A stretch of 64,000 nt of DNA from Piedraia hortae CBS 480.64 (taxonomy: Eukaryota). Of the stretch, positions 1,755 through 49,624 are shown in pieces. The DNA is taken from contig MU005974.1 in NCBI GenBank assembly GCA_010093745.1, positions 62,001 through 126,000 on the forward strand, in the 5' to 3' direction. The notes under the pieces are model-generated. The model ran no database searches. It saw only the letters and a program-made list of their open reading frames with translations, and was not told the DNA's origin. Positions within the stretch are counted from its first letter, which is position 1. Each line of letters opens with the position of its first letter. The position numbers and the translations under genes were made by a program.

Positions 1755-4700
1755 ATGTCCCAATTGATTAGACGCTTGCGGTCGAAGCGGAACTCTCAGA
1801 CCTCGAGTTTACAAGTTTCCACATCACAGGGACCAGCTTTCACTTCCCAGCTTTCACAACATTTGCAGTTACACAATGTGCCTGTTCAGACTCAAGCTAC
1901 CATGGTAGCGTCAAGAAACCCCTTTCAAAACAGGGACCAGTTAATGCTTGATGTCCTTGCCGCTCTTAAGCCTGACGATCGCAAGTTCGTTAAGGAGCAA
2001 CTTCAGTCGAATAGCGGTCTTGTGAGAGACGCAGCTGGTGTCATTGCCTTGAGAGGACAAAACCAAACAAGAAGAAGCAGTCAATGGACTGCCAGGATGA
2101 GGAGAATTGCTGGTCAGATGATGCAATTTGCTTCGGTGTTTGACGTGGCTACGAACGTCCAAGCAGGAATTCTCAGCCTGCCGTGGGCTGGCATCCGCTC
2201 TCTACTGATGGTAAGGCATAAGTGTGTACTTGCAATCCTTAATAACACCAATGCTCCAGGTGGCTCAGAAGTCTCAAGAGCAGAGTGAGTCGATTCTGAA
2301 GGGAGTTGAAACAGTGCTGGATACCAGCTTTCTTCTCAACGCATACTTTGACCTATACAGCAAGCTCGATGGCACGCCCTCGATTGAACATTTGTACAAC
2401 AACATCGTCAAACTATACGGGGTCATTTGGAGATTCTTGGCCCACGCCCATCATACGTGCGATATGAAATGGATAGAGCGTACTATACACTCTTTGACTG
2501 ATGATATTATACCAAACTTCAAAAACGATCACGACGGGATACTGACAACTGTCCAATTCCATATAAAAGCTGTCGACCTCGAAATTTCCGAGGGGCAGCG
2601 GGCTTGGGTCAACGAGCGGTTAATTGCGCTAAAAAAAGCCCAAGAGGAAATCAATGAACGAGTGAAAGACATACAGCAAACGCTAGATCTTGATGCTCTC
2701 CAGATGGCTCCTGGAGCTGCCTACAACTCCATATATTACCACCATCGTGGCCAAAATGGCGAACCACAGTTGTGCTTGGAGGGTACCCGATTACAAATCA
2801 GGCAGAAAGTACTCGACTGGGCCACCAATGCCAATGAACAAAGGGTTTTCTGGCTATCTGGAAAGGCGGGGACAGGCAAATCCACGATTGCTCGTACCAT
2901 TGCTCATGATTTGGACAAACAAGGGTACCTGGTTGGAAGCTTCTTCTTTAAACGCGGTCAGGGCGAATTGGGCCATGTGCGTTGCCTCTTCCCCACTATC
3001 GCCCGACAAATGGCCCAATTCATACCCAGCATCAGAAACCAGATTGCCGATGCCACTCACGGCTTTCCTCCAGTAAAGGAAAGAGCACTGACAAGCCAGT
3101 TCGACAACCTTATCAAAGAGCCACTCTCGGGGTATAATACAGGTCATGCGACAGATGTCAGGGTGATCGTCATCGATGCACTGGACGAGTGCGAGGACTG
3201 GGGAGCAATTGGTAATGCTATAGCTCTCTGGCCGACACTTAGGGCCCATACTTCCATGAACTTGAGGGTGTTTGTGACAAGCCGTACAGACAATAAAGTT
3301 GGTGATAAGCTGAGCAGGTTGGAACACAAGGATCTCCAGCATGAGAGGCTCGAGCTCCTGCAAATGAGCACCATCAAACATGACTTGACAATGCTCTGTC
3401 ATCACGAACTAAAGAAACTTCGCGAAGAGAGCAGGAACGAGTGGAGCTACGATGAGCTAGAAGATTATTGGCCAGGAGAGGTTGTAGTCAACAAACTTGT
3501 GGACATATCCCAGCCACTGTCCATTGCGGCTTCTACAATATTCAGAGAAGTGCGTAACAATCCAAGACAACGTCTCCAAAGATGGGTAGACCGGCTCACC
3601 TTCTCTGGAACGGATGCACTGACCGTAATTTATGCCGACATCTTGGAACAAGCCGCCGACCTTGACAAAGAGTGGCTAATTTGGTTCAACAAGATCATCA
3701 AACCCATCGCTTTCCTGCAGTCCCCGCTAACCATTTCAGCGCTTACAGACCTGCTTGGAGGAGGAGATCTCATGCTTGTTACTAATGCTCTCAAGCCCCT
3801 GAGTCCTGTGATCGATTTTCCAAGTGGCAAAGAGGTGAAAGCGGGCTCGCGGGCCACGGTACGGATCTACCATGAGTCCTTCCGAGACTTCCTCGTGGAT
3901 TCCGATCTCAGGGGAAAATCTCCATTTTGGACTGACAAAGACGAGATGCACGGAGTTCTCCTGAGCAAGTGCACATCATTGCTCCAGAACAGACTATGCC
4001 GCGATATATGCAAACGTAAGAGCCCAGCGGCAGCACGTGAATCCGTCCCACCTGAGCATATCGACAAGCATATTTCTGAGTCAGTAGAGTACGCCTGCTG
4101 CAACTGGGTTCACCATGCAATTCAAAGTCACCAGTCCATTCAAGATGGAGGACAGGTAGATTGCTTTTTGCGCGCATATTTTCTCTCATGGACAGAGTCG
4201 ATGGCTTGGCTGGACAAACTTGGGGAGATGGTATCAAGCCTCAAGCAATTACAGAAGGCAATCGACGTGAGTATCATGCCTTTCATCAACTACGAAGACC
4301 ATAGCTAATTCTGTATAGGCTACATGTTCACCCGAGTTGCACTCATTTGTCGCCGACGCTTTGAAATGGGTACCAGCACATAGAAATATGATCATTAATG
4401 TACCGCTTCAAACCTATCTTTCAGCACTTGCCTTCGCTCCGATCAACAGTATTGTACAAATACCTTTATTCCTGAAATGACCAAATTTTTGCAGGTCTGG
4501 TCGCCAGTCGTGTGTGATTGGAGCTCATTTTTGCAAACATTGAGGTAGCATGCGAGTTGTGTATTACCTATAGCACCTTCGCTAGATGGAAAAAGGCTTG
4601 TAACCTCCACCTGGAACAAAACAGTATGACTGTGGTATATTAAAAGTTGTACCGAAGAAGCATGTTTGGAGGTTAACTCACATGTCATTTCGTCATAAAC

Positions 4701-7313: not shown

Positions 7314-10300
7314 ATGCGTGAATTAGCGAGGAACTTCAAAGAGAAGGGGAAGTCTCCGACCTCACGCCTACCAATATCCACTTCACAGGCTTCAGCTTCC
7401 GCCACACAGCCACTCCAATTCTCGCAGCCATACAATGCGCTCATCCCTGTTTCAGCTCCCGTGCTAGTCCCAAGGGTCCCTTTTCGAGATATAAGCCAGT
7501 TGAGACTTGATGCCCTCGTCAGTCTTCCACCTGACGACCATAAGCTCGTTGAGGACCTACTTGGTCCAAACAGTGATTTTTCAAGAGATGCAGCCAGAAT
7601 CCTGGCCTTGAGAGGGCGGAATCAAGCCAAGAAGCCCGACCAGTACATTATCGGCATGAAGAAAATATCTTGTCAGATCATGCAATTTGCAACGGTATTT
7701 GACGTCGCGACGAATGCCCAAGCGGAAGTGCTGAGCTTGCCATGGGCCGGCATTCGCTCTTTACTGATGGTAGGTAGTGATTATATGATTAGATCCCGTG
7801 GTAATAGCATTTCTCCAGATGGCTCAGAGGGCTCACGAGCAGAGTGAGTCGGTCCTAAAGGGAATTGAAACAGCGCTGGACACCAGCTACCTTCTCGACA
7901 CATACTTTAACACATACAGCAAGCTCAATGGCACACCGAGCATTGGACTTTTGTACGACAATGTCGTCAAGCTGTACGGCCTTATTCTGAAGTTCTTGGC
8001 CCATGCCCACAACGCAAGCGATATGAACAGGCTGGAACGCGTGGTACACTCTCTGACCGATGATGTTTTACCCAAATTCAGGGCCGAGCACGATGCAATG
8101 CTGAAGATTGTTCAATCCTATGCGGGAGCTGTCAACCTCGAGGTGTCCGGAAGACAGCGGGTATGGGTTACCAAACAGCTAGAGCTGCTGAGGAAGGACC
8201 AAGAAAATATCAACAAAGGAGTTAAGGGTGTCCAACAAACGCTAGACCTTAGCGCTCTTCCAAGCGTTGACGGAGCAGCTTACAACTCAATAGACTACCG
8301 CAATCGCAACCAGATTGGTGAGTCGCAGTTGTGTCTGCACGGCACCCGGGTGCAGATCAGACAGACAATACTGAACTGGGCCACCACCGCCAATGACCAA
8401 AGGGTGTTTTGGCTATCGGGGAAGGCTGGAACGGGTAAATCCACGATTGCACGAACCGTTGCCCATGAACTGGCAAAACAGGGGTACTTGGTGGGCAGTT
8501 TCTTCTTTAGGCGCGGTCGGGGTGATCTGGACCGAGTGCGTTATCTGCTTCCTACCATCGCCCGCCAAATGGCCGAGTCAATACCCAGCATCAGCCACGA
8601 AATTGCTGCTGCCATTCATGGCGTGCCTCCAGTGGATGAAAGGCCGTTGACCAGTCAATTTGACGCGCTTATCAAAGACCCGCTTTCGGGTTATAATACC
8701 GGGCACGCGACGGATGTCAGGGTGATTGTCATCGACGCTCTTGATGAGTGCGAGGACTGGGGCGCGATTGGTAATGTCATGTCTCTGTGGCCAAAGCTCG
8801 CTGCACATACCTCCATGAATCTGAGAGTTTTTGTGACGAGTCGATCCGACCATAAAGTCGGCGATAAGCTCAGCAGACTGGAGCCCAGTGGCCTTCAACG
8901 CGAGAAGCTTGAGAACCTGCAAACTAGCACGATCAAACAGGATTTGACCTTGTTCTGTAATGATGAACTGAGGAAGCTTCGCGAGGAGAGCAAGAGTATT
9001 TTAAGTCATGATGCGCTAGAGGATGGCTGGCCAGGAGAGATTGTTGTCAATAAGCTTGTTGACATTTGTCAGCCACTGTTCATCGCGGCATCCACGATAT
9101 TCAGAGATGTGAGCAGCAACCCACGACAGCGCCTTCAAAGATGGGTGGATCGACTTAACTTCTGTGATGCTGATGCACTGTCTGTCATTTACTCGGACAT
9201 CCTGGAACAGGCCGCTGATCTTGACAAAGAGTGGCTCAGTTGGTTCAACAAAGTTATCAAACCGATCGCTCTCCTGCAGTCCCCTCTCACCATCTCTGCG
9301 CTGACAGATCTGCTGGGAGGAGGAGACCCCATGCTTGTTACTAATGCCCTCAAGCCTTTGAGTTCAGTCATTGACTTTCCAAGTGGTAAAGAGGTGAAGG
9401 CGGGCTCATGGGCTACGGTGCGGATTTACCATGAATCCTTCAGAGACTTCCTTATGGGATCCAATCTGAAGGGCAAGTCTTCGTTCTGGACTGATGAAGC
9501 AAAGACGCATGGCGTCCTCCTGGGCAAGTGCATAGCGTTGCTGAAACACAAACTTGGCCGCAATGTATGCAAGCAGAATGATCCGGCGGCAGAACAGTAT
9601 TCCCTGCCACCTGAACATGTTGGGAGGTTCATACCAATGGCAGTACAATATGCTTGTCACAATTGGGTCAACCATGCAAGCCACAGCAAGCATAAAATTG
9701 AGGATGACGGACAAGTAGATCGTTTCTTACGCACATGTTTCCTCTTTTGGATAGAAGCAATGGCTTGGCTGGATAAAGTCGGCGAAGTCCTACTAAGCCT
9801 TAGGCAGCTGCAAAAATATATCGAAGTAGGTTTCGTGTCCGCCTATGTCAAAGGTACGGTAGCTGATTCTCCACAGGCAAAGTGCTCATCTGCGGTACGA
9901 TCCTTTGTCGCCGATGCTCTGAGGTGGGTACCAGCACATCGCGAAATTATCAGCGATACACCGCTTCAAACATATCTCTCCGCACTTGCATTCGCGCCCA
10001 GCAACAGTGTTGTGAAAACCAGCGTCGATCATGTTATAGACGATTTTTTGCAAGTTTGGTCGCCAATCACGAGTGACTGGGGCCCCATCTTGCAAAAAGT
10101 GGGTCTATTGGAAGGAGAAAACACAATGGGGAATCAAATCCGGTCGATAGCGCTTTCGACGGATGGCACGAAGCTTGTAACCACTGTCGACGATGGCACA
10201 GTACGACTGATAAACGTTGAAAGCGGTACAGAAGAAGACTGTAAGGAGATTAAGATATGCAGCGTCGCTTCGTTAATCTCTGGACAAAATCTTGCGACAA

Positions 10301-11913
10301 TTGCCGGGCTAGACGGGAGTCTTTGGAAGTGGAAATTGGGGGAAGAACTAAGAAAATTCGATTCGAAGCTTCCTGGCGTGGCAAAATGCGCGTCCGTCTC
10401 TCCGGATGGTCGGGTAGCTGCTTGGGGCCTAGACGATGGCAAGATCTACCTTTTGCATGTCGAAAACAACATCGGAGAGGTAATCCGGGGACACAGTTCC
10501 TCTGTACTGTGCATGAGGTTCTTATCAGATAATGAAACACTACTTTCTGGATCTACAGAGATCTGGAGGTGGTGCACGAAAGCTGGACATGAGAGAGTTT
10601 GTGAGGTAGGCACCAACATCCACGACATTACCATCTCACCGGACGGGAATACTATTGCTTGGTCCGCCGAGCAGATAATATCGGTGTTTCACTGCGACAC
10701 TCATGAAGTTGACCAGATCAAATACAAGGGCAGATCTCCCTCTTTCACGATCACTCCAGACAGCCAGAAGATCTTAATTTCATATCACACAAGCCCGTAT
10801 GGCCCACGCATCCTCCTGTGCGACTTGCGAACGAAATTGAAGCCAATCGAGCTGTACTTGGACCTGCAGGAACTGGGCAACATGACATTCTCACACGACG
10901 GGAAGACGATCTGGGTCGGGAGGTTCGGAGAATCACTGACACAGTTAGACGCAAATCTGGTAATGAAAAGTCGGCAGCAAAGCACCGGCAAGGCCGCTAT
11001 CGCACTGTCAACAGATGGCCAATCGCTCGCGTCATTGTCTCATGATCACCAGCTGAAACTTTGGAGCACGGAAACAAAGGTTTGCAAGCAACGTTTGTCA
11101 GATAAAAGGCTCCTCAAGGTTGCTGGGCCACAAGACAGCGTCATTTTGATCTCGTCAGATAGTCGTTTTGTGGTTGTGGCCGACCTAGACTCATTGAGCA
11201 GTGCTGTGTTCATGTGGAATCTTGAAAAGAATGAATTAAGAGAGCTAGAGCACAGGGCCCAACGAGTGTCTGCTCTTGCAATTTCTCCAGACAACAAAAC
11301 CTTATTGTGCGGCTTTCGTAACGGTTATATTTGGACTATGGATCTAGAAAGTGGCGAACGGCTAAAGTCGTTCACGGGGAACACGATGAGGATCAAACAT
11401 ATTGCGTTTTCTCCAACTGGGCAAGATTTTGCATCGGTATCAGCTGATAGTACAATAAGGATCTGGAGCCCTGAATCACAAACTCCATTGATTTTCGGCG
11501 ACTTGGCCTTTCCCGACACAGCAGCTTTCTCAGCAGGTGGTCGGATGCTTTACTCAGCAGGTCCCCGTCACATCTTCGAATGGGACATTGAAAAGGCGTG
11601 CAAGGTGCGCGCACTTCGCTTGGAAGACCCACAGGGTGGTGGTTTGGTACTCGTCAACGGTCGCTTCATGCCGTCAGCTTTTTTGCCATTCCTGGGGAGG
11701 TCAGAGGCTAATGACGTTGATTCGATATCCGAAAACCAAGAAATCTGGGCCGTGGATTGGCAAAGATGGATAAAAATTGATGGTCGGAATATGTTGATAT
11801 TTGCTGATCCCCTGAAGAGACGCGGTTGGATTTCGTGTGGACGGACAATGGTGTTTCCGAACGATGAGACTGGCTTCACTGTATTGAATTTCACCGGCAA
11901 AACCTCTTTCTAA
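7314..11913 (+). CDS. NACHT-WD40 NLR copy B, intact (HET-E/NWD-like architecture, 1499 aa if both introns are spliced)
   Basis: Exons 7314-7769, 7819-9825, 9877-11913; introns 7770-7818 and 9826-9876. Helical N-terminal domain with LSLPWAGIRSLL, NACHT Walker A/B, HESFRDFL motif, PLQTYLSALAFAP junction motif, then degenerate WD40 repeats (SPDG..., IRIW, LWST). Confidence 0.93.
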
Positions 11914-33682: not shown

Positions 33683-34727
33683 ACTGACAGTGAGAGCAGT
33701 TGCGAAGTGTCAAAGAACGACAAAGAACGCTGGCCGCAAAGAACAGGTGTGACTATGAACTAGGCCAGGCGAGGGGTTATGTTTAAAAACGCTCTGGTGC
33801 ATGACCAACTAGGGTAGGAAGGCACTTGCCCCTCCTGCTCCCACCTGGTCATTTTTGGTCGTAATTACAGCCCTGTGACGCGGGGCTGGGTTGGCGGGCG
33901 GATCGCGCCGCACGGCCCGCCTGTTCGGCCGCGTACAATGTGGGAGCGCCCCGTTTTGCGACGTTTCTACCCTGCAACGCCAAAAAAGTCAAATGCCAAT
34001 TTTTGCAAATCATGTGTCATGACCCTTGACAGTCACACTGTGTCCGCCTCGTCAGCCCAAACGAAACATTGTGGTCATTGTGACCATTGTGGTAGAGACT
34101 CGGCGGCACAGCCCAGCTGAGTTGTGACTCTATGATGATGAGGAGCCGCAGTCAAGCCACCAGGATGTCGCAAACTCACCTTCGGCTGTTGGCCGTCAGG
34201 ATCAACTGCCGCCACCCAAACAGCCGCAGACAGCCAGCCCTGCAGCCGTGATGAACCGGGGTATGGGGCTCGCTTGATGCTTCTCATACCCTGTAGACCG
34301 AGCGAGCATGGCAGCCCTGCACATTGGTGCAAACAGAACCGTTCGCGGTTCGTTACGATCGCATGCGTCGTGCCCGGCTGTCTTTCTCTGTGAGTTGGTG
34401 TGACAGCTAACGACACCGTTCCTGCTCGTTTGGGAACCCTACCGACGCCATTGTTTTTTTAATGGTTTTGTTAGCGTTTCCGTTAAAGAAAGCGTGCTTT
34501 CGTATCCGTGAGGCCACATGTCAAACCACACCCTTGTCACACTCCCGGGACTCTATTCCACAAAGCCTTGCGCCCTGGCCTGCGACGCTCCGACGCGCCC
34601 CGAACCGGTTGGCTTGGATCGACAAAATTGGAATATTCGTTTGACTCTCACGAGTGTACATAACTTGGACGCCCTCAGCCCATGAATTACTGACATTCCT
34701 CAGCAAACACTTGCGCGTGCCTGTCCC

Positions 34728-36275
34728 ATGTCATTCGAACCTGCCAGTCCGGCCATGGCCTACCCCGGGTCCCTAGAGAGACCCAACCCAACCCTTCTTC
34801 GATCCCGAGAGTATCCTCAACTTACTCAATGCACCTATCTCGATAACGCCGGAACTACAATTTACGCCCGCTCACTCATTGAGGAGTTCTCGGCAGACCT
34901 CGTCCAAAATCTTTATGGCAACCCCCATTCGGCGTGCGCTCCATCCATGTTTTGCGGACAGCGAGTCGATGCCGTACGCGCTAAGGCTCTCGCATTCTTC
35001 AAAGCTGATCCAGAGCACTTTGACCTGGTCTTTGTTGCAAATGCCACGGCAGCTATCAAGCTGGTTGCCGAGAGCTTGCGCGGATATGCTACGGCGCGCG
35101 GGACTCAGTTGTGGTACGGTTACCACAAGGACGCACACACGTCGCTGGTAGGCATCAGGGAGGTTGTTGACTTGAGCCGCTGTTTTTCCAGCGATGCTGA
35201 GGTTGAAGAGTGGTTGAACAGTCGCGGCCCGCAGCGCCCGCTGCGGCTCTTTGCCTATCCGGGACAGTCGAACATGACTGGTCGCCGGCTGCCGCGGACA
35301 TGGCCGGCCCGGGCCCGTGCCATGCGCTACCCCGCCTACTCCCTGTTGGACGCCGCCGCCCTGGCCAGCACCGCGCAGATCGACCTATCGGATCCCCACA
35401 CTGCCCCGGATTTTACAGCGCTGTCCTTCTACAAGATCTTTGGCTTTCCCAATCTCGGCGCGCTGATTGTGCGCAAAGCGGCCACCCATGCGCTTCATCA
35501 TCGTCGTTACTTTGGCGGGGGCACCGTCGACATGGTCGTCGCAGTCGATGATACCTGGCACGCCCTGAAGGATACGAGCACTCACGATCGTCTCGAAGAC
35601 GGAACGCTACCGTTTCATGCAATTATCGCCCTAGACCACGCCATAAACGTCCACAAACGTCTCTACGGTCCCGAGCCGATGAAATTTGTTTCCGAACATA
35701 CCAGCGATTTGGCACGGCAGACGTACGAGGCGCTGGCGGGGCTGAGACACGCGAATGGTACTCCCGTCTGTCGCATCTATACCGATGCTTCCGCGCGTTA
35801 CGGTGATGCACTGACTCAGGGCGCCACAATTGCTTTCAATATCCGCCGCTCGGATGGTAGCATGATCGGCTACGAGGAAATTGAGCGAGCGGCTAATGCG
35901 CGTAGTGTCTACATTCGCAGTGGTTCGCTTTGTAATCCCGGCGGGGTGGCCACCTACTTGGGATGGACGGCACCACAGATGCGTTCGGCGTACGCGGCTG
36001 GCCACCGATGCTCGAAGCCGCGCCAAATTGTGGCTGGCAAGTCTACCGGAGTCGTTCGCATCAGCTTCGGGGCCATGAACACCATTGAAGATGTGCAGGC
36101 ATTACTCCGATTTATGAACATCTATGTCGATACCGAACCTGCTGATCTTAAGAATACCATGCAGATGAGCGTATTGCGTGTGTCTCATTCACCCCCAAAT
36201 CCGGCACGTAACACCTTTAGCGCCAGACGTTTTGGACGGAGCCTGGCAGACAAATTCAAGCCTTTGAGGTGCTGA
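34728..36275 (+). CDS. Molybdenum cofactor sulfurase-like PLP enzyme (class V aminotransferase domain only, no MOSC domains)
   Basis: YLDNAGTT, LYGNPHS, FAYPGQSNMTG, LLDAAA, SFYKIFGFPNLGALIVR (PLP Lys), LEDGTLPF, RSGSLCNPGG (catalytic Cys) and VRISFG. The ORF stops about 65 aa later. Confidence 0.85.
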   Translation: MSFEPASPAMAYPGSLERPNPTLLRSREYPQLTQCTYLDNAGTTIYARSLIEEFSADLVQNLYGNPHSACAPSMFCGQRVDAVRAKALAFFKADPEHFDLVFVANATAAIKLVAESLRGYATARGTQLWYGYHKDAHTSLVGIREVVDLSRCFSSDAEVEEWLNSRGPQRPLRLFAYPGQSNMTGRRLPRTWPARARAMRYPAYSLLDAAALASTAQIDLSDPHTAPDFTALSFYKIFGFPNLGALIVRKAATHALHHRRYFGGGTVDMVVAVDDTWHALKDTSTHDRLEDGTLPFHAIIALDHAINVHKRLYGPEPMKFVSEHTSDLARQTYEALAGLRHANGTPVCRIYTDASARYGDALTQGATIAFNIRRSDGSMIGYEEIERAANARSVYIRSGSLCNPGGVATYLGWTAPQMRSAYAAGHRCSKPRQIVAGKSTGVVRISFGAMNTIEDVQALLRFMNIYVDTEPADLKNTMQMSVLRVSHSPPNPARNTFSARRFGRSLADKFKPLRC

Positions 36276-37777
36276 TTTTATTAGAGGGCGTTGTGTTATT
36301 GACTCCGAGATACCCTTATGCGTAGAGTACATTTGTAGAAGCTGTACATAGCTCTCTGTGTCAGTCTATCGTCCCTTCCATGTCTCATATTGTTTTGCAT
36401 AGCAAGGGTTCTCCGGACCGTTGCATGTCGTCCAGATCCTTGGGTCCGGGTCTGCGTCATTCGTCCATGTCCCTGTCGAATCCTGCATCACCCGTCTAGA
36501 CCCCTGTCGAACCCTGCGCCATTCGTTCACAATCCCTGTGGCTGATGACGCATGGAACCGTTTGTCCACCCTTTCAGTGCATACCCCACAGGGCCGAACT
36601 TCTCCGTTACTCAATCTCAACGGTTTCATGCCAAATTTCGCAACATGTTGAACAAAACAAGGCCCTGGCATGCCCTTTTACGTGAACATACGTTCATGCA
36701 CTCCAAAAACCACCTAGCTGAGTTCTGGTGCGGAATGCCGGAAGGGGCTCGTTCCTGATGGATAACGGACATGCGTGCGTCATCTGCATTAGTTCACGCA
36801 CTGTCATGAGAAGGTTCGCCATTGTTCTCTCTTCTCGTTTCCAGGCAGAAAAACTTGTTTCGTACAATATTCGAGTGGGCGATCTTCTCGGAACCTCGTC
36901 CGAAGAATTCGTTTTGCTTTTTTAAGAAGCGTGCGCGTCTCTCGGACAGTATGACTGCTCCGCTATTCTTAGATCCCGAGAGGGTATCATGCCCGCGTCC
37001 AGTCTAGTCGATGCGAAAGAGTTTACTCTAGAAATAACATGTGGACTCTGGCAAGGTCGTGAGATTTTGCATTGCCAAAGTTACCTATGCAAAATTTTCA
37101 TTCGCAATCCGCCCTGCCACATCGAGCTTGGTCATGTGTTTCTATCGTTTCATTGCAGTCCTGGATAGTCAATCACACAGAGCACCTCTGCAAGCACGAG
37201 ATACGTATCAGAGATGATTATAGAACACGACAGTACGATTGATCATCAAAACTTGTTTCAATGGTTGAGCCCAACTCCATAAAGATCCTAGCCATCAATT
37301 CAGCCTTCTAGACCACCGAACTTGAACCAATCTCATCGGACCGAGTATTCGAAAATCAAGTATCACGAGCCTTAACTACTCAAATCCCTATTCCCCATCC
37401 CTACCTCACCTTAAAACGTATGATCATGTGCAACGACTACGTAGTCTAAGGCCCCAGCCCTCCAACAACATTTCAGCCCATCAAGACTCGTGAAACATCA
37501 CCCCACCTCCCTCTTTGTTCAAGGCTTCCCTTGTTGTACCCGCAAGCAACAAAACCAAACCCCTGAACCTGCTTGAATAAACCCATCCCTCACCCCATAG
37601 TCTCTCCACATAGATGACAGTCCCACCAGCCTTCCATTCAACTAATCACATGACCCTACCAATCATCTAACAGATATATACCCCCAGTACCGTGTTCGAT
37701 AATCGTTAGAACGCAAAATCAAACCTCCAACGGTTTGAATTGCAGTGAACCATATTGCGGTTTTATTCAGCATTGAA

Positions 37778-37903
37778 ATGGACGTACTAAATATGATCTG
37801 CGAAGGATGTGGTGCGGATTCGCCGAATGTTGTGGTTGACCCGAAGACGGGGGAGGTGAAGTGTGGTTCTTGTGGATCTGTCCTGAGGGGTGTTGAGGCT
37901 TGA
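37778..37903 (+). CDS. Putative 41-aa stand-alone TFIIB-type zinc-ribbon microprotein (or TFIIB paralog remnant)
   Basis: MDVLNMICEGCGADSPNVVVDPKTGEVKCGSCGSVLRGVEA*, with C-x2-C-x17-C-x2-C. ATG in gaaATGg context; TATATA at 37675; GTAAGT donor at 37906. Too short for the ORF track. Confidence 0.6.
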   Translation: MDVLNMICEGCGADSPNVVVDPKTGEVKCGSCGSVLRGVEA

Positions 37904-38244
37904 TGGTAAGTTGAGAGGATAGCGGATGAAAAGGTTGGTAATGGACTGATGAGTTTCGGTAGATTGACAGTTGAAGGCAGAGATTGGGTCTTGAGGGGTG
38001 TGATGGTGTGGTGGATTGGCTTTTCTGATCGGTGGTGGGATATGGGAAGGACCGCGAGCGTGATCAAGACTATGACCGACACATCCAAGGAGTGCTCCGA
38101 GAAAAGCAGGGTTGTGATGACAACTGTCCTCAAGGGCTATGGCTAGATCGCATGGCATCTCACCTCGGCTCTAATCAGGTAGAAATGCAACTCCCGTGAT
38201 CGTTAAACGTTCCTTGACATTATACAACACATGATACACTTTGC

Positions 38245-38945
38245 CTACCTCTTTCTGCTATCACTTCCCGCGAGAAAGCTGGCAAGATCAAAGTTCTGGA
38301 ACGCAGCAGCGCCCTGCGAATTCAAGGGATTGCTCCTCTGCATCTCCTCCAACTCTGCCTTCGACTCGGGGTCCACTGCAAATCATCAGTTATACCTTCT
38401 TCTTAACAGATACCAATTTCAAACTTACGATTCTCCATCATATAAGGCACGCCGATGATGAATGCCAAGCTGACTAGTCCCATTAGGATCATCGGACTCA
38501 TGAGAAATCCCACCAGACTGAAGGCACCCCGCGGTTCGTAGAAATCTTTCTGCAGGCTAGGCTGGACGGCAAAAGATAGCTCCCCTCGGCCGCTGCCATA
38601 CAATATGCCCTTGTGATTCCATTCGTTCCCGCGAAAAGTCTGCCAGACTTGGATTTCATCCGCGTTGCCCTCGGTCGGGGCGGTCACGTCCACCCGCAGA
38701 GGCGGGAAAAAGTAGTCTCTACTGTAGATGGTCAAAAGGTAGTTTGTGGGTGAAAGTTCGGAGAAGGTGAATGTGTTGTTAAGCTGAAGGGCGGCATCGC
38801 GAGCTACGCCAGGAGGTCCGAGAAGGACTGCGTGACTAGTGGACGCAAGACTCGCCGGATCAGCGAGGATAGAAGAGGCGGATATCGAGACTGATATTCG
38901 GGCAGCCGCTGCGCTTGTTGCCAGCAAGAAAAAGGAGCACTTCAT
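38245..38945 (-). CDS. EMC7: ER membrane protein complex subunit 7 (DUF2012-type)
   Basis: Signal peptide MKCSFFLLA, FPPLRVDV, QTFRGNEW, FYEPRGAFS...SPMILM transmembrane segment. Intron 38376-38428 leads to LDPESKAELEEMQ...FDLASFLAG*. Confidence 0.85.
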
Positions 38946-39094
38946 GGTGGTCGCAATGTGACGAGGTTCAGAAGAAGCGTACAAAAACGGAAGTCTACGT
39001 AATAACTGACATCAAACTAATCCAATAACTGGAATTAAATCTCCGGCAAAGTTCTTCATGCCCAAATTCACCTAAATCGAGTCTCACCACTCAT

Positions 39095-40250
39095 CTATGC
39101 ACGGGTGATTGTTCGTCGTGCCTTGACAGTCATGTCATAGAGCACATCCTTGAATGCGAACAAGAATGCAGCCGTCAAGACGGATTGCGTAACCTTTGGG
39201 CCGATACCTTTATCACGTCAGTCGGAATTGACGATTCATGGGAAAAGTTGGACTTACCACCATAAAGGCCACCAACACCTTCCTCACTGACAATCCTCCG
39301 GAGACTGGCAATGATGCCTTCCTTGTCTCCACTGCCCGTGGCGACATGCGCCCTCGACTTGACGGTGATATAAGGATAAGTGATGGTTGTTGCGGCCAGC
39401 TTCCCTAGAGCACCCAAGAGGAAGCTGTCGGTCGCCGTCATCTTGCGACGCTTCTCAACTACCTGCTTTAGTTTCTCAAAGATGGTATACTGAAGGATTG
39501 GGTTGATGACAAGCACCAAAGCAGGAAGAACACCCGCAAATAACCTCATGAATCCATCCTCATTGACGATCTTCATGAAGGTAGAGATAGTGCTCGGAGC
39601 CTTTTGAGGTTTGCCGTCACCCGACGGAGATTCTGAGTTCTCAGACTTACGAGCGGTCATGCGGGTGTTGACCACCCAAATGGGGTTCGTTATGAGGACC
39701 GTGGCGCTCCCCGCCAGAGCCCCAGCAGCCATTGACTCAACTGTGCTCAGAGCAGTCTTGTTGGTCGTTCGCTGGAAGAATGCGCGAGAGAACTCGTACC
39801 CTTAAACTACTGTTAGTTTCCCCTTGCGCTTGAAACATTGACTGACAATAGTAATAGACAAAATTGGTCACCGTAATGCCAAACAGAGCACTTTCCATGC
39901 CGGCGTAAAGACCAAGATAACCCTCACGGTCAATGATGCGTTTGGCAGCATCGAGCGTGCTGGTGGCGGCCTTCTTCTTCTCCACCTGGGCTCGCGTGGA
40001 CAAGGTGATCAGCGGATAACTGGTCGTTAGTCAAGCTTCAATTCAAATGTGTCAAAGAAACTCACGTCAGCGCCATGCTGAGAAGTCCACCCCCTGCTCC
40101 AGCCAGAGCATGCGCGACATTGTCGCTTTGCTGAGCAGCCACTGCATGTGCTGTTGAAGACCCTGAAGGTACATTTTTGGCCTGTGCTGCCGGGGCAGTC
40201 GAGGAAGGCAGGGGGTTTGACGGAGTCGGTGCAGCTGCGCGATCAGACAT
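39095..40250 (-). CDS. Peroxisomal solute carrier of the mitochondrial-carrier family (PMP47/PMP34-like)
   Basis: Four exons. HALAGAGGGLLSMALTYPLITLSTRAQV, TNPIWVVNTR and TYPYITVKSR carrier motifs; ends GIGPKVTQSVLTAAFLFAFKD...RA*. Confidence 0.88.
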
Positions 40251-40425
40251 GGTGAGAGACTGGATGGAACACGGGCTTGTACGGAGATATGAACTCTCTT
40301 CATATTCATATGGACGCGACCTACCTCGGCTCGGTATGCACGTGATATGACGCCTGTTTTGATACGCTATCCAAATGCGGAAATATCCAACGTCAGGTCG
40401 GTGACTTACGGGTGTCTCCGGGCCC

Positions 40426-42249
40426 ATGTATAGACCGCATGAACCTGGAGTCGGTGGTGGACAACGGCATACTCTTCCTACGACGGCATCCTCGTCTTAC
40501 ATGCCAAATTCGTTTTCTTCTATGTTTTCAACACCACAAAATCAGCGTTCCACGAGCTCCAGTGGAGCTGCTAATTCGAGGAGTCTGCCTAGGAAAGATG
40601 TCTCGGCCGAAACAATTACGGATGCCTACGTTCAGTTTATGCTATTTTGTAACCCCCAATTTCCTCTGGATGTCGACACCGAATTGCTACGAACAACCTT
40701 TAACAGCCCGCCCAGAAGCAATGATAAGCACTTTGACACTTACCGCCTTTTTGAACTGATTCGCAAATTTGAGGCAAAGGAAATCAAGACATGGGGCCAA
40801 CTAGCGCTGGATCTTGGAGTTGAAGCTCCCGACCTCAGCAAAGGTCAGAGCGCGCAAAAGGTGCAGCAGTACAGCGTGCGCCTCAAACGTTGGATGCGTG
40901 CAATGCATATTGACGCATTTTTTGAATACCTTCTGGGCAAACAAAACCCCTATTTTACCAATGTATCTTCCACTGATGCATCTTTGCAAGTCGGGAGAAG
41001 TGGTGTACCTCCAGAGGAAGACTTGGCACTTCGAGCTCTTGACCCGTCTTTTCGGCCTAAACGAGGTAGGCGGCGGAACTCCGAAGTCAACCAAGATGCC
41101 AATAATGAAGGCCCATCGTCCATAGAGGGAGGAGCGGAGGAAGGTTTCGCGTACTCTGAATCCCCGGCCAATCCGCCCCCAGATCAGTACAATGACCCTT
41201 GGTCTCTCACTCCCCAGACCTATTCCTGGGCGAATCGTCAAGCTCCGCAGTCAACTACCCCTGCCGCAGCCCCATCGTCTCTAATGTGGTCACATGGCGC
41301 ATCACCGCACCCTATCTCTGCCCAGCCGTCATCAATGGTCTCTCAACTAGAAGCGGCATTGGACGCAAATGAAGTTAGAAGTACAGTGCGCAAAAGGCGA
41401 AAACATGGTCCAGCTGTATCTAGTGCATGGCCTTCTTCAGCTGCTCCAGGCACGAAACCCAGGGGGCGTCCACCGGCAAACCGTAACCCAATGAGTCCAT
41501 CCGCTACCTCTGCATTGCCTCAGTCAACAACCACGCCACCGCTAGATCAACCCAGCCCTCAAACTGCGGTTTCTGGATATCAAAGCCCAGCCAAGCGCAC
41601 AAAGCTCTCTCTTCAGGTTCCTCTACATCAGGGACCAGTGGTCCGTTTAGCCACACCGCCCTCCGTTTATGTCAATGGCACGTCGCACGAATCACTCGAA
41701 GATCCCCCATTTCCACTCGAAACGTTGAAGAAGGCTTTGACAAGTGACCTCTTGCGAGCTGAAGTAGAGGGGAGAGGCCGGCTAAACGAGACGGAAGCCA
41801 AACGTCTTTCAGAGGCTATAATACATCGCCTCAACCTACACGAGAATAACACTGCTCGGATAACCGCTGCCTCATGGCTGGGACTAGGTGGACATCTTCA
41901 CATACCTACCGGTACAGCCTCGAGCATAGGTCGTAACAAAAAGATCAAAGTCAACTCTAATGGCGAAACGACCTATCATATATCCTGGACCGCCGTCCTA
42001 GGGGGATGTGAAGGGCAATTTGAACTCTTGCATCTGACCCTTGCGGAGCCATCTCCAAAAGAAGACGAGTACGATGCCCGTATAAGAGCATTAACTGGTG
42101 CTAGAGTTCCTGAGGATGGCGAAGATGATGAGAATGTGGACTGGAAGTCCAAATACAAAGTTCTGGACCTCGAGGTTCGTTTAGCTGTAGGTGAGCTACA
42201 GCGTTTAAAGGGCCAAGTCATTGACAAGGTCTTGGACGTTTTGCTCTGA
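40426..42249 (+). CDS. ARS-binding protein 2 (Abp2)-like DNA-binding protein
   Basis: DAYVQFMLFCNP...IKTWGQLALDLGVEAP...QKVQQYSVRLKRWMRAMHIDAFFEYL domain; AT-hook-like KPRGRP and RPKRGRR. Confidence 0.8.
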   Translation: MYRPHEPGVGGGQRHTLPTTASSSYMPNSFSSMFSTPQNQRSTSSSGAANSRSLPRKDVSAETITDAYVQFMLFCNPQFPLDVDTELLRTTFNSPPRSNDKHFDTYRLFELIRKFEAKEIKTWGQLALDLGVEAPDLSKGQSAQKVQQYSVRLKRWMRAMHIDAFFEYLLGKQNPYFTNVSSTDASLQVGRSGVPPEEDLALRALDPSFRPKRGRRRNSEVNQDANNEGPSSIEGGAEEGFAYSESPANPPPDQYNDPWSLTPQTYSWANRQAPQSTTPAAAPSSLMWSHGASPHPISAQPSSMVSQLEAALDANEVRSTVRKRRKHGPAVSSAWPSSAAPGTKPRGRPPANRNPMSPSATSALPQSTTTPPLDQPSPQTAVSGYQSPAKRTKLSLQVPLHQGPVVRLATPPSVYVNGTSHESLEDPPFPLETLKKALTSDLLRAEVEGRGRLNETEAKRLSEAIIHRLNLHENNTARITAASWLGLGGHLHIPTGTASSIGRNKKIKVNSNGETTYHISWTAVLGGCEGQFELLHLTLAEPSPKEDEYDARIRALTGARVPEDGEDDENVDWKSKYKVLDLEVRLAVGELQRLKGQVIDKVLDVLL

Positions 42250-42710
42250 CCAGACGGAAGAGCCTTATTAACTGCTATGCGCAAAAACAATGCATTTCCA
42301 GGATTAGTGGCAGGAAAATGCCTCAATCTACGAAATCTGCCTGCACCGTCAATTGTCACGAATGCTCTACGAAGGTAAAATGATGTAAACGGGAAACGGG
42401 ATGATGAGATCAGATGCTCAAGGGCGTGTGACCTTTGTATAATTAAACGTGTAATGAGAATGTGCGAGTTATAGCCTCTTGGCAACAGGAGCAGATGGAG
42501 ATTGCCCAGATCAGAACCTTTGGACACACGGTGGAAGAGTTTTGCGCCTCGCGTTTTATAGTTGACATGTGATGGGCGGCCCCTCCCGCTCCCCGCATCC
42601 GGGAACGACGCCACGCTAAGCAATCAGCCGAGAAAGGTTAACCTCGCGCCTCAAAACTCGCTCAAGCGACACAAAGACTGCATCCATGGAGCGATAGAGC
42701 ATTCTAAAAA

Positions 42711-45033: not shown

Positions 45034-48000
45034 ATGCCCAGCATGCCTGAATGGATGGGGCGCTTGAAATTGAAGAGTAAAATGCAGCCATTTTCCACTT
45101 CAAATGCCGCCACTTCACAGCTTTCAACTCCAATCCCACAGGCCGCGCATTCCACTCCACAGCCTTCCCAATCTTTTCAGCTACACAGCACGCCTGTCCA
45201 TGCTTCAGTTGCAGTGGTAGCTCCAAGCAACCCCTTTCGAAAGAAGAGCCAGTTGATGGTTGATGCCCTAGCCAAGCTTCCCTCCGACGATCGTAAGTTT
45301 GTTGAGGGGCAACTGGGTCCAAACAATGATGTGGCAAGAGATGTAGCTAGAATCATGGCCCTAAGAGGACGAAACCAAAGTAAACGGTCCAACCAGTATA
45401 TTGTCGGGATGAAGAAGGTTGCATGCCAGATCATGCAATTTGCGCCGGTATTAGACGTCGCAACAAATATCAAAACAGAGGTCCTTAGCCTGCCGTGGGC
45501 CGGCATCCGCTCTCTCCTGATGGTATGTATCTATGATGTAGTGTCAACCTTGAATATCACCAGTTCTAGGTGGCCCAGATGTCACAAGAGCAGAGTGAGT
45601 CAATCTTGGAGGGGGCCGAAATTGCGCTCGACACAAGCTACCTTCTCAACGTATACTTTGACGTATACAATCGACTCAATGGGTCGCCCACAATAGGTCA
45701 TCTGTATGACAATATTGCCAAACTATACGGGCTCATTTTGATATTCTTGGCACACGCGCAAAGCACATCCCATGCGAGAGCTGTCAATTTTGAGGCATCC
45801 GAGGAGCAGCGAATTTGGGTTAATGAACAGTTGGAAGAGCTTAAGAAGGCCCAGAGAGAGATCAATGATGGGGTTCAGGGCGTACAACGGACACTGGATC
45901 TAAGTGCTCTCCCCTCGGCCACCGGGGCAGCTTACAACTCCATAGACTACCGCAATCATGGCCATAATGGCGAACTGCAATTGTGTCTGAGCGATACACG
46001 GATCTGTATCAGACAGACTATTCTGAATTGGGCTACCACCGCCAATGATCAACAAATATTTTGGCTGTCTGGGAAAGCTGGAACGGGCAAATCCACAATT
46101 GCGCGAACTGTTGCCCATGAACTGGCGAAACAAGGATACTTGGTGGGAAGCTTCTTCTTTAAGCGCGGCCAGGGTGAACTCAGCGATGTGTGTAGCCTGT
46201 TCCCCACCCTGGCCAGACAAATGGCCGATTCAATACCTACCATTAGCGACAAAATTGCTGCCGCCTCCCACGGCTCACCTCCTGTAAAAGAAAGGCCATT
46301 GACAAGCCAGTTCGACACGCTTGTCGAAGAGCCACTTTCGGGGTACAGCACGGGTCTAGCGACAGATGTCAGGGTAATTGTAATCGATGCTCTCGACGAG
46401 TGCGAGAACTTGGAAGCAATAGGTCATGCCATGACTTTTTGGCCAAAACTCGGTGCCCACACTTCCATGAACTTGAGGATTTTCGTGACGAGCCGGTCGG
46501 ACATCAACATCGGGGCTAAGCTCGGTCAGCTCGGGTCGAGATACCTCCATCATGAGAGGCTTGAACACTTTCAAAGGGATACTATCAAGCATGACTTGAC
46601 AATGTTCTGTCACGATGAGCTGCGGAAGCTTCGCGAGGCGAGCAGGAATGACTTGAGCTATGATGAACTAGAGGATGATTGGCCAGGAGAAGTCGTTGTT
46701 AACAAACTTGTTGACATATCTCAGCCACTGTTTATCGCGGCATCCACGATATTCAGGGAAGTGAGGAACAATCCTCGAAAGCGGCTTCGAGAATGGGTCG
46801 ACCGGCTCAACTTCACTGAAACGGATGCACTGACCGTGATTTACTCTGATATTCTGAAACAAGCCGCTGATCTCGACAATGAGTGGCTCCAATTGTTCAG
46901 TCAAATCATCAAACCAATCGCCCTACTGAATTCCCCACTCACCATTCCGGCGCTAACATACCTGTTCGGAGAAGGAGACGACATGGCCGTCCCTAATGCT
47001 CTTAAACCTTTGAGTTCAGTGATTGAATTTCCAAGCGGGAAGGAGGTGAAGGCGGGTATCCAGGCTCCGGTACGGATATATCACGAATCCTTTCGTGACT
47101 TCCTTGTGGGTTTCAATGACAGAGGCCGACCTCAATTCTGTATTGACAAAGGAGAGACACACGGTTTTGTCCTGCGCAAATGCATAGACTTGCTCCAAAA
47201 AATGCTAGGCCGCGATGTGTGTAAACTAAAAGATCCCGGGACAGAACGCAAAGCCGTGTCAGCCGAGCATATCCAAAGACACATCCCAGAGTCAGTGCAG
47301 TACGCATGTTGTAATTGGGTTAGTCATGCAATTCACAGCAATCAGACAATTCAAGATGATGGACAGGTCGATCGTTTCTTGCGCACATGTTTTCTTTTCT
47401 GGGCAGAGGCAATGACATGGCTGGAAAAGCTCGGGGAAATGATATTGAGCCTGAAGCAGTTGCAAAAAGCCATCGATGTAAGTATCGTGCTCATTTTGAC
47501 AGAAGAGAGTCTCATTGACTTCACACAGGCGAAATGCTCACCTGGGTTGCAATCACTTGTTGCCGATGCTCTGAGATGGGTGCCAGCACATCGGATTATG
47601 ATGAGCGATGAGCCTCTTCAACATATATCTCAGCACTGGCCTTTGCGCCGAGCAAAAGTGTTATTCGAAGCATCTTCAAACATGAGATGGAGGACTTCTT
47701 GCTAGTCTGGCCACCAGTCACAACCAATTGGGGTCCTAAGTTGCAAACTCTGAGGGGGCATGCGGAGGCCATATTGAAGATAAAGCCTTCAACCGACGGG
47801 AAAAGGCTGGTGAGCACATCCCGGGATCGAACAGTACGATTGTGGGACATTGAAAGCGGGACCGAGGAATGGCGTGTGAAGGTTGCATCATACAAATCAA
47901 CGTCATCAATCTCTGAAAAAGGCGTTGTACTCATTGCTGGCTTCAACGGAGAATTATTGAAATGGAGTTTGGAAGAGGGAGTCAACCGAGTTGACTTGAA

Positions 48001-49624
48001 ACTGCCCGACACTGCATATTGCGTTTCAGTCTCTCCAAAAGGCCGATACTCTGCCTGGGGCCTAGGCAGAGGCGGGATCTTTATAAAGGATGTTGACAAC
48101 GACACCGGAGAGTTAATCAAATGCCACAATTCTACAGTGCGTTGCATGGTGTTCTCGACGGATAACGAGTTGTTTTCTGGATCTACGGAGATCTGGAGAT
48201 GGAGCACAGAAGCCGGGAATGAAATGATCTGCCAAGTAGGTTCTGACGTTGAATTCCTCGCCGTTTCACCGAATAGCAACCTCATCGTGTTTTGGACCTC
48301 AACTAGCCTTGGGTCTTCAGCTGGCTCGCGGGAATCCTCCTTTTCGTCCCATCTTGGCACGGTCTTGGTATGTCGATGCGATACTCGAGACGTAGAGTGG
48401 GTAATGGAATTGAAAGTGCAGTCATTCTGCTTTTTCACAATAACTCCAGATAACCAGCAGGTTTTGATTTCAGCTGGCGAAGATGTTTTCCTGTACGACT
48501 TCGAAACCAAACGTAAGCCAAGGATTGTGTTTTCAGAACGCATTTACAGAACGACTATGGCATTCTCGCCCGACGGAAAATCAATCTGGGCTGGTGATGT
48601 TGATGGGTCGGTGATACAACTGGACGCCGAGTTGGCAATGCGGAGTCAGCTGCACCGACCAGGAACTGCTATTATATCATTGTCAACGGATGGCCGGTCG
48701 CTCGCCTCATGGCCTCCGGGAAACCAGCTCAGTCTTTGGAACACTGAAACGCAGGTTTGCAAACAATGGTTATCAGACGAAAGACTTTCAAATTTGTCAG
48801 ATCGCCTCCTGCTGATCTCATCAGACAGTCGTTTCGTGGTTGCTGCCAACCTGTCCACACCCTCAGACAATGCGGTATTGATATGGGACCCTGAAACAAC
48901 TTCATTGAGACAGCTAAGACACAAGCTAGGTCACATTTCAGCTCTGACAATATCTCCAGACAGCGAAATACTCTTTTGCGGCTTGTCTGACGGCCAAATC
49001 TGGACCTTTGAACTGAAAAGTGGCGCCCGGTCCAAGACGTTCCTGGGGCATACGAGCTGGATCAGAGAGATTGTGTTCTCACCCAACGAGCGAGACTTTG
49101 CATCGGTATCATCTGATGACACAACAAGAATTTGGAATATTCACAAGCAAGATCCGTTGCTGCTAAGCGAAGATGACTTTGCGCTGCCCGTATCTTTCTC
49201 CGCAGACGGTCAGAAGCTATACAAATTTGACGACTGCAATGCCGTATATGAATGGGACATTGAAGAAGCGAGCATAACGCGAAAACTTGATGCGACGAAT
49301 TTAACGGCTTATTATGGATCGATACTCTTCAACGGTCGATTTGTGCATGCATCTTATCTGCCAGTCCTGCGCACCATAGGGGCCAATGAAGTTGATCTGA
49401 CTCAGACGCGGGCAGATTCCTTGGTAACGTTTCGGGAACGCGACTTTTTGGTCCTGCAGTTATATCTTTACAGTGGATGGGTCACTGTTGACGGTCGGAA
49501 TACATTCAAGCTCCCGTTTCCGCTGTGCCAAGACAATTGGATCTCGTGCGGGCGAACGATTGTTGTTCCCAACGTTGAGACTGGTTTTATAGTATTAAAA
49601 CTCACGGGCAAAATCTCTTTTTAA
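45034..49624 (+). pseudogene. NACHT-WD40 NLR copy C, split by a single 1-bp frameshift (possibly a sequencing error)
   Basis: Introns 45523-45569 and 47478-47528. CTTCAACATAT at about 47616-47626 versus CTTCAAACATAT in copy B. Upstream frame stops at 47705; the WD40 frame 47687-49624 is fully open. Exon 2 is 99 nt shorter than in copies A and B. Confidence 0.88.

Follow-up and report, generated by a model that had tools for sequence, protein, structure and literature searches.

A transcribed and spliced mini-gene of the fungus Piedraia hortae predicted to encode a lone TFIIB-like zinc ribbon

Can the zinc ribbon of a TFIIB-family factor stand as a gene of its own in a eukaryote? Recruitment of every eukaryotic RNA polymerase proceeds through the docking of a TFIIB-like ribbon on the enzyme, and the question is raised by a short locus of the fungus Piedraia hortae CBS 480.64, which lies in a stretch of 64,000 nucleotides (contig MU005974.1 of assembly GCA_010093745.1, positions 62,001 to 126,000 of the forward strand; hereafter the window, whose own coordinates are used throughout). 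A preliminary description of this DNA had placed a stand-alone microprotein gene of the TFIIB zinc-ribbon type in one of its intergenic gaps. The locus is a two-exon, expressed and unannotated mini-gene of the plus strand, whose open reading frame (ORF) corresponds to a whole B-ribbon and nothing else. The reading that we favour, with a rough probability of 0.4, is that of a lineage-restricted, expressed, ribbon-only gene of the TFIIB family, whose product possibly acts at the dock of a polymerase. A real gene that encodes a ribbon-only protein, whatever its function, has a slightly better than even chance.

The ORF (Table 1) starts at the ATG at 37778-37780, is preceded by an in-frame TGA at 37736-37738 and closes with the TGA at 37901-37903, the resulting product being the 41-residue peptide MDVLNMICEGCGADSPNVVVDPKTGEVKCGSCGSVLRGVEA. 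Its four cysteines (C8, C11, C29 and C32) are arranged as CxxC-x17-CxxC, with 17 residues between the two knuckles, and are accompanied by the signature D-x3-GE-x2-CxxCG-x-VL. The start codon lies in a strong context, with an A at -3 and a G at +4, and is the first ATG after the TATATA motif, the nearest ATGs upstream of this motif being those at 37614 and 37650. The intron begins 2 nt after the stop codon of the ORF, and its signals resemble those of the introns of neighbouring genes (46-53 nt). Of these elements, the start codon, the upstream stop, the 41-amino acid (aa) ORF with its four cysteines, the TATATA about 100 bp upstream and the splice signals (GTAAGT, a CTGAT branch and TAG, starting 2 nt past the stop) had been noticed in the preliminary description, and are each found where they had been placed.

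Table 1. Positions of the elements of the mini-gene and of the genes around it, in window coordinates.
Feature	Position	Strand	Remarks
Mini-gene ORF	37778..37903	+	41 codons and a TGA stop; complete four-Cys TFIIB-type zinc ribbon; lies under RNA contigs
TATA-like element TATATA	37675-37680	+	Roughly 100 bp before the ATG at 37778; read from the sequence
C/A-rich upstream region, candidate promoter and leader	37300..37700	+	Delimited by GC skew; promoter role putative
Spliceosomal intron, 57 nt	37906..37962	+	GTAAGT 37906-37911; CTGAT branch 37946-37950; TAG 37960-37962
Exon 2, read as 3′ untranslated region (UTR)	37963..38146	+	Contig cover from 37962 on; frames computed
Aminotran_5 gene	34686-36272	+	Upstream neighbour
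EMC7, exon 1	38429-38945	-	Convergent neighbour
Mitochondrial carrier gene and Abp2 gene			Neighbours, beyond EMC7

Transcription of the locus is seen in one public run (X1), examined over 34000-42500 in the form of unstranded contigs, whose depths are not usable for ranking genes. These contigs are derived from RNA, since they skip four CT..AC stretches, which are canonical introns of the minus-strand neighbour genes, and one of them has its loose end, at 42490, in a poly(A) run that marks the 3′ end of the plus-strand Abp2 transcript. The contigs cover the ORF of the mini-gene; two of them, ending at 37905, extend past this point by 11 letters that are the same as those of 37963-37973, and the match of a third contig of 888 nt begins at 37962. 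The junction 37905^37963 exists in RNA, and as only the plus strand of the excised stretch shows GT..AG, the spliced RNA and the ORF are of the same polarity. The splicing of 37906-37962, which had been predicted from the letters of the DNA, is in this way observed in a transcript. An intron located less than 50-55 nt past a stop codon should not trigger nonsense-mediated decay, and the mRNA of the mini-gene would escape this pathway because its junction lies 2 nt from the stop.

Both flanks of the mini-gene are also covered by RNA. Downstream, the 888-nt contig (37962-38882) links exon 2 with the spliced EMC7 mRNA of the opposite strand, so that the convergent transcripts of the mini-gene and EMC7 would overlap at their 3′ ends, as a possible natural antisense pair. 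Upstream, the 1.5 kb of 36276-37777, which contain no notable ORF, lie colinearly under an RNA contig that spans 34000-37856, and this cover may correspond to unannotated transcription, to a long UTR or to read-through from the Aminotran_5 gene. No Rfam match at E≤1 was obtained over 36200-38500, a region that includes this stretch.

The identity of the ribbon was addressed with family profiles. The peptide gives a significant match to the TFIIB zinc ribbon of Pfam (PF08271; E 1.9e-6, 27.8 bits), as expected from the preliminary description, with a score that falls slightly under the gathering cut-off of this family (29 bits). The match comprises profile positions 1-29 of 43, and positions 30-43 are left unmatched, the peptide stopping before the last third of the model. 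The next Pfam family, ribosomal S27e, reaches an E of 0.0025, three orders of magnitude behind PF08271, and NCBIfam yields weak rows alone, with S27e again at 0.0025. The best sequence match in the PDB is 1PFT, the N-terminal ribbon of Pyrococcus furiosus TFB/TFIIB (E 0.0043), in an alignment that spans both knuckles and the DP..GE..C..CG.V core. Further secondary matches are those to the aIF2-beta ribbon (0.14 in the PDB) and to Elf1 (0.056).

The single-sequence AF2 model of the peptide (pLDDT 74.3) shows strands at residues 4-8, 18-20, 27-29 and 35-40 and no helix, and predicts that the peptide folds as a zinc ribbon, for which the TFIIB type is not separable from the MetRS and TFIIE types by structure. 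Foldseek ranks first 1PFT and TFIIB chains from pre-initiation complexes of yeast, with E values of at least 0.1 and none at E≤1e-3. The structural matches are without exception zinc ribbons, with Z values in VIA-align not above 5.8. Among the structural alignments, the highest sequence identity corresponds to TFIIB chains (30-34%; yeast TFIIB residues 17-53), with 30% over 37 residues for TFIIB in VIA-align, and a look-up in the protein atlas leads to generic small ribbon clusters (0.91).

Two sets of decoys and a simulation indicate how readily such a likeness arises. The window has 913 stop-to-stop ORFs of 35-90 aa, and the 150 richest in Cys, the target included, made up a first set, in which none of the other 149 matches PF08271, the best E for any family being 0.0046. 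The bare pattern CxxC-x10-25-CxxC defined a second set of 22 ORFs, two of the window and 20 of related fungal loci (every such ORF among the 14,250 in 567 kb of DNA), which gave no PF08271 match at E≤1. Over 6 million codon sites, a first-order Markov simulation with the local composition produced 81 bare four-Cys patterns and no full signature. Analytically, the full signature, a motif fixed after the sequence was seen, is expected at 6.7e-11 per codon site, which would amount to 0.005 per 7e7 sites were the whole genome of this composition. Taken at the level of the sequence, the likeness of the peptide to a TFIIB ribbon is real.

A further question is whether the ribbon is followed by any other part of a TFIIB-like factor. 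Past the ribbon the peptide has 5 more residues, and nothing TFIIB-like follows residue 41, in keeping with the original proposal of a ribbon with neither B-reader nor cyclin repeats. In the spliced RNA, the frame continues from the TGA to a second TGA across the junction, and then through 60 open codons up to the TAG at 38144-38146. A weak resemblance to the TFIIB linker had been suggested for this extension, and it did not hold, as the exon-2 peptide has no match in Pfam or in the PDB at E≤10. The codon score of the 60-codon run is typical of coding windows. The architecture of full-length TFIIB, Brf1 or Rrn7 factors (B-reader, B-linker and two cyclin folds) is absent from the locus, where a full-length TFIIB-like gene is impossible because the convergent EMC7 begins about 350 bp beyond. 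Splicing events that would extend the ORF were also considered: 71 GT..AG pairs would give products of at least 60 aa, the 40 longest of which were examined and all show weak donors, and none of these 40 is among the joints or loose ends listed for the X1 contigs; other isoforms may occur in contig pieces outside this listing.

Relatives of the peptide were searched for in several collections. A word-indexed protein collection holds none of 22-72 aa or of 73-2000 aa, and a phmmer search of 1.84 billion protein representatives gave nothing of at least 35 bits beyond repeat artefacts. Five phmmer matches at E≤1e-3 showed 4-8 matched stretches each, and were taken as artefacts after the three examined turned out to be repeat proteins. 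A metagenome scan with the 54-aa stop-to-stop ORF gave 591 pattern matches and no relatives, in a search that requires exact 8-residue words and is weak at this divergence; the sole match of a scan of prokaryote genomes (L081) was discarded as spurious, since the shared 8-residue word falls in a Cys-free and probably non-coding frame. Related fungi were approached through 80 EMC7 loci from metagenomes (32-56% identity), whose 14,250 six-frame ORFs include no ribbon-like one (best phmmer E 1.5); at least 1 kb downstream of EMC7 is available in 57 of the 80 loci, and a ribbon ORF in none. This last test says little because the neighbourhood is not conserved: EMC7 is present in 80/80 loci and Aminotran_5, the mitochondrial carrier or Abp2 in 0/80, which means no synteny. 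The 62-nt core of the ORF has no second copy in the window. It can be safely stated that the collections searched contain no protein annotated for the ORF. In the absence of any match of at least 35 bits, the ribbon was not freshly copied from a canonical, conserved TFIIB or Brf1, and the preservation of all the cysteines together with the D, GE, CG and VL positions despite such divergence would fit constraint better than a long neutral decay.

The composition of the locus is peculiar, and nothing can be learned from codon usage over the 41 codons. The ORF stretch contains 41% G and 28% T, which corresponds to a frequency of Cys codons of 5.0% versus 3.5% window-wide. GC skew takes values of -0.32 to -0.67 over 37250-37699 and of +0.52 to +0.73 over 37800-38049. 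The strand composition switches sharply, in a change centred on the ORF start, from a skew of -0.67 (37550-37649) to one of +0.73 (37900-37999). Within the same region, a minus-strand frame of 157 open codons (37663-38136) has no Pfam match and is probably an effect of composition. A direct repeat (37880-37893 and 37988-38001) was dismissed as insignificant, given that its score is reached in 21 of 500 shuffles of matched composition.

If the favoured reading is correct, the 41-residue peptide would be translated from the first AUG after the TATA-like element, would bind zinc, and would sit on the ribbon site (Rpb1-type dock) of a nuclear RNA polymerase, like the B-ribbons of TFIIB, Brf1 and Rrn7. 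The B-ribbon is described as the element that recruits RNA polymerase II (Pol II), with the Rpb1 dock contacted together with it (PMC7111264). Lacking the reader, the linker and the cyclin core, the peptide could not bridge to TBP and DNA, and its unproductive occupancy of the dock would dampen or skew initiation, either that of Pol II or, via the Brf1 or Rrn7 site, that of Pol III or Pol I. The mini-gene product could then be regarded as a titrating or competing modulator of initiation, that is, a microProtein of the TFIIB family, and its size (41 aa) and its single PF08271-like domain, homologous to a domain of a larger regulator, are those of a microProtein. That a ribbon-only protein works by occupying a polymerase dock is nevertheless doubtful, and the broadest form of the idea, in which a free-standing eukaryotic B-ribbon microProtein at the TFIIB/Brf1/Rrn7 dock would tune the assembly of pre-initiation complexes globally, is more doubtful still.

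Several results weigh against the favoured reading. Regarding the domain, the PF08271 score of 27.8 lies 1.2 bits below the curated cut-off of 29, VIA-align ranks a MetRS knuckle (Z 5.8) and TFIIE-alpha (Z 4.2) above TFIIB (Z 3.2), and a G/T-rich stretch favours by itself Gly, Val and Cys codons. Regarding the coding capacity, the log-likelihood per codon of the 41 codons (-0.04) is below that of 96% of the 41-codon windows from long ORFs, and 70% of the small non-genic ORFs equal or exceed the codon score of the mini-gene. The 60 open codons past the tandem stops have a chance of about 0.02 (for a stop frequency of 6.2%), and it is possible that the frame was formerly longer. No orthologue, paralogue, parent or fused form was found in any collection searched, which leaves nothing that speaks for purifying selection. 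The RNA evidence comes from a single run of unstranded contigs, in which the start site, the 3′ end, the isoforms and the abundance are unreadable, and one of these contigs is colinear over 34000-37856, from the upstream gene into the ORF, so that a long leader or read-through from that gene may be the source of the ORF cover. Finally, a ribbon-only fragment of 49 aa from TFB3 of Sulfolobus islandicus, an archaeal factor with a similar ribbon, is reported to be expressed but inactive as an activator (PMC6101594), and a bare ribbon need not do anything.

The explanation that follows most closely, almost as likely as the favoured reading, is that of an expressed truncated relic, in which a partial duplicate of a TFIIB-family gene would have kept its promoter, its ribbon exon and its first intron, with an RNA that is either non-functional or an antisense partner of EMC7. 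The lack of detected relatives, the codon usage of the ORF, which is not coding-like, and the run of 60 open codons with coding-typical score past the two stops are all in line with such an origin, and an intron straight after the ribbon would be the expected look of a captured 5′ gene fragment. The contig that joins exon 2 to the EMC7 mRNA, with the apparent overlap of convergent transcripts, fits the antisense variant, and the host genome, reported as the smallest and most gene-poor of its class, has a history of gene loss (PMC7082219). On the other hand, a decaying fragment does not easily account for four intact cysteines and an intact signature at every position, nor for tandem stops that close the frame cleanly and leave the domain unbroken. 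The closing of a formerly open junction needs two adjacent nonsense changes, the peptide encoded by exon 2 matches nothing of TFIIB, and there is no close parent at 35 bits or more.

Two other explanations depend on what the likeness to TFIIB means. The mini-gene could encode a genuine small zinc-ribbon protein unrelated to the dock, either associated with the ribosome or translation or a general binder of zinc or nucleic acids, whose resemblance to TFIIB would merely reflect a shared architecture. The secondary matches to S27e (in both Pfam and NCBIfam), aIF2-beta and Elf1, the precedence of MetRS and TFIIE-alpha in the structure search and the generic clusters of the protein atlas agree with this possibility, which we consider improbable in view of the roughly 1000-fold better score of PF08271 over any other family, the D-x3-GE-x2-CxxCG-x-VL motif, which is a TFIIB/TFB signature in the 1PFT alignment, and the fact that TFIIB chains show the highest identity. 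A chance ORF within the G/T-rich non-coding exon of a long non-coding RNA, with a ribbon likeness born from composition, is a far less probable explanation than any of the others. An open frame of 41 codons is not rare in itself, the codon usage is uninformative, and the G and T content of the exon raises Gly, Val and Cys; but none of the 171 decoys reaches the PF08271 score of the peptide, the simulation that generated 81 bare four-Cys patterns did not generate a single full signature, and the expectation at this composition remains at 0.005 for 7e7 sites.

The mini-gene lies in an unremarkable arm of a fungal chromosome. A protein of Piedraia hortae CBS 480.64 is 100% identical to the EMC7 exon, the next best match being just 59% identical, and by this sequence comparison the lineage of P. 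hortae is an isolated one. Its assembly of 16.95 Mb and 7,572 genes is reported as the smallest among 101 Dothideomycetes (PMC7082219). The 3′ end of the mini-gene intron together with the start of exon 2 (37945-37987, plus strand) resembles, in inverted orientation, the 3′ end of the EMC7 intron and the start of EMC7 exon 2 (38349-38390, minus strand), in an alignment of 43 columns that includes ACTGATGA and GAAGGCAGAG. This alignment scores 29, whereas 300 shuffles average 20.2 and peak at 28 and the other three neighbour introns score 15-24; it may come from a small duplication in inverted orientation, as the donor of the splice acceptor, or merely from splice signals in common. Farther away, the 64-kb window contains three plus-strand NACHT/NPHP3_N genes (2215-4305, 7789-11910 and 45570-49621), two of them with WD40 propellers, in an NLR-like arrangement.

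Were the favoured reading true, the mini-gene would provide a natural competitor for the dock contact, which could act as a simple throttle on initiation by one or more polymerases and serve as a tool for probing the dock interface. Regulation of the microProtein type would be extended to the general transcription machinery, through a class of general-transcription modulators undescribed in eukaryotes and a counterpart of the archaeal TFB paralogues that are ribbon-only or truncated. Even as a relic, the locus is a clean case of a transcript with a small ORF, spliced and missed by standard annotation, in a fungal genome of great compactness.

The comparison with known systems starts with the TFIIB, TFB and Brf1 factors themselves, whose B-ribbon (PF08271, 1PFT) has in common with the mini-gene product the CxxC-x17-CxxC spacing and the D-x3-GE-x2-CxxCG-x-V(L/I) motif. 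In these factors the ribbon is followed by a B-reader, a B-linker and two cyclin folds, all absent here, where the ribbon is the whole protein. Eukaryotic microProteins such as Id, LITTLE ZIPPER and miP1a/b titrate the dimerisation domains of sequence-specific factors, and the mini-gene would share with them, by analogy, the concept of a multi-domain regulator with a short paralogue of one domain, which enters non-productive complexes. To our knowledge, no known microProtein is the ribbon of a general transcription factor, and we know of no eukaryotic ribbon-only example. A full-text search for TFIIB zinc-ribbon microproteins found a single paper, on Methanosarcina mazei, which describes small archaeal CxxC-x17-CxxC proteins with the same Cys spacing as TFIIB/Brf and suggests a role in transcription for them (PMC12704099).

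Closer to the proposed mechanism is TFB3 of Sulfolobus, which, like the mini-gene product, has the four-Cys ribbon without a C-terminal DNA-binding core (PMC6101594, PMC6101591). The two differ in that an essential C-terminal coiled coil is reported for TFB3 (PMC6101594), whereas the mini-gene peptide has none, and in their distribution, since TFB3 is an archaeal protein described as conserved in 16 genera (PMC6101594, PMC6101591), whereas the ORF of P. hortae has no detected relatives. In any case, TFB3 is reported to act in trans on initiation complexes, as an activator (PMC6101594, PMC6101591), and by analogy it would be the nearest precedent for a ribbon of the TFIIB family that works at a polymerase apart from the rest of the factor.

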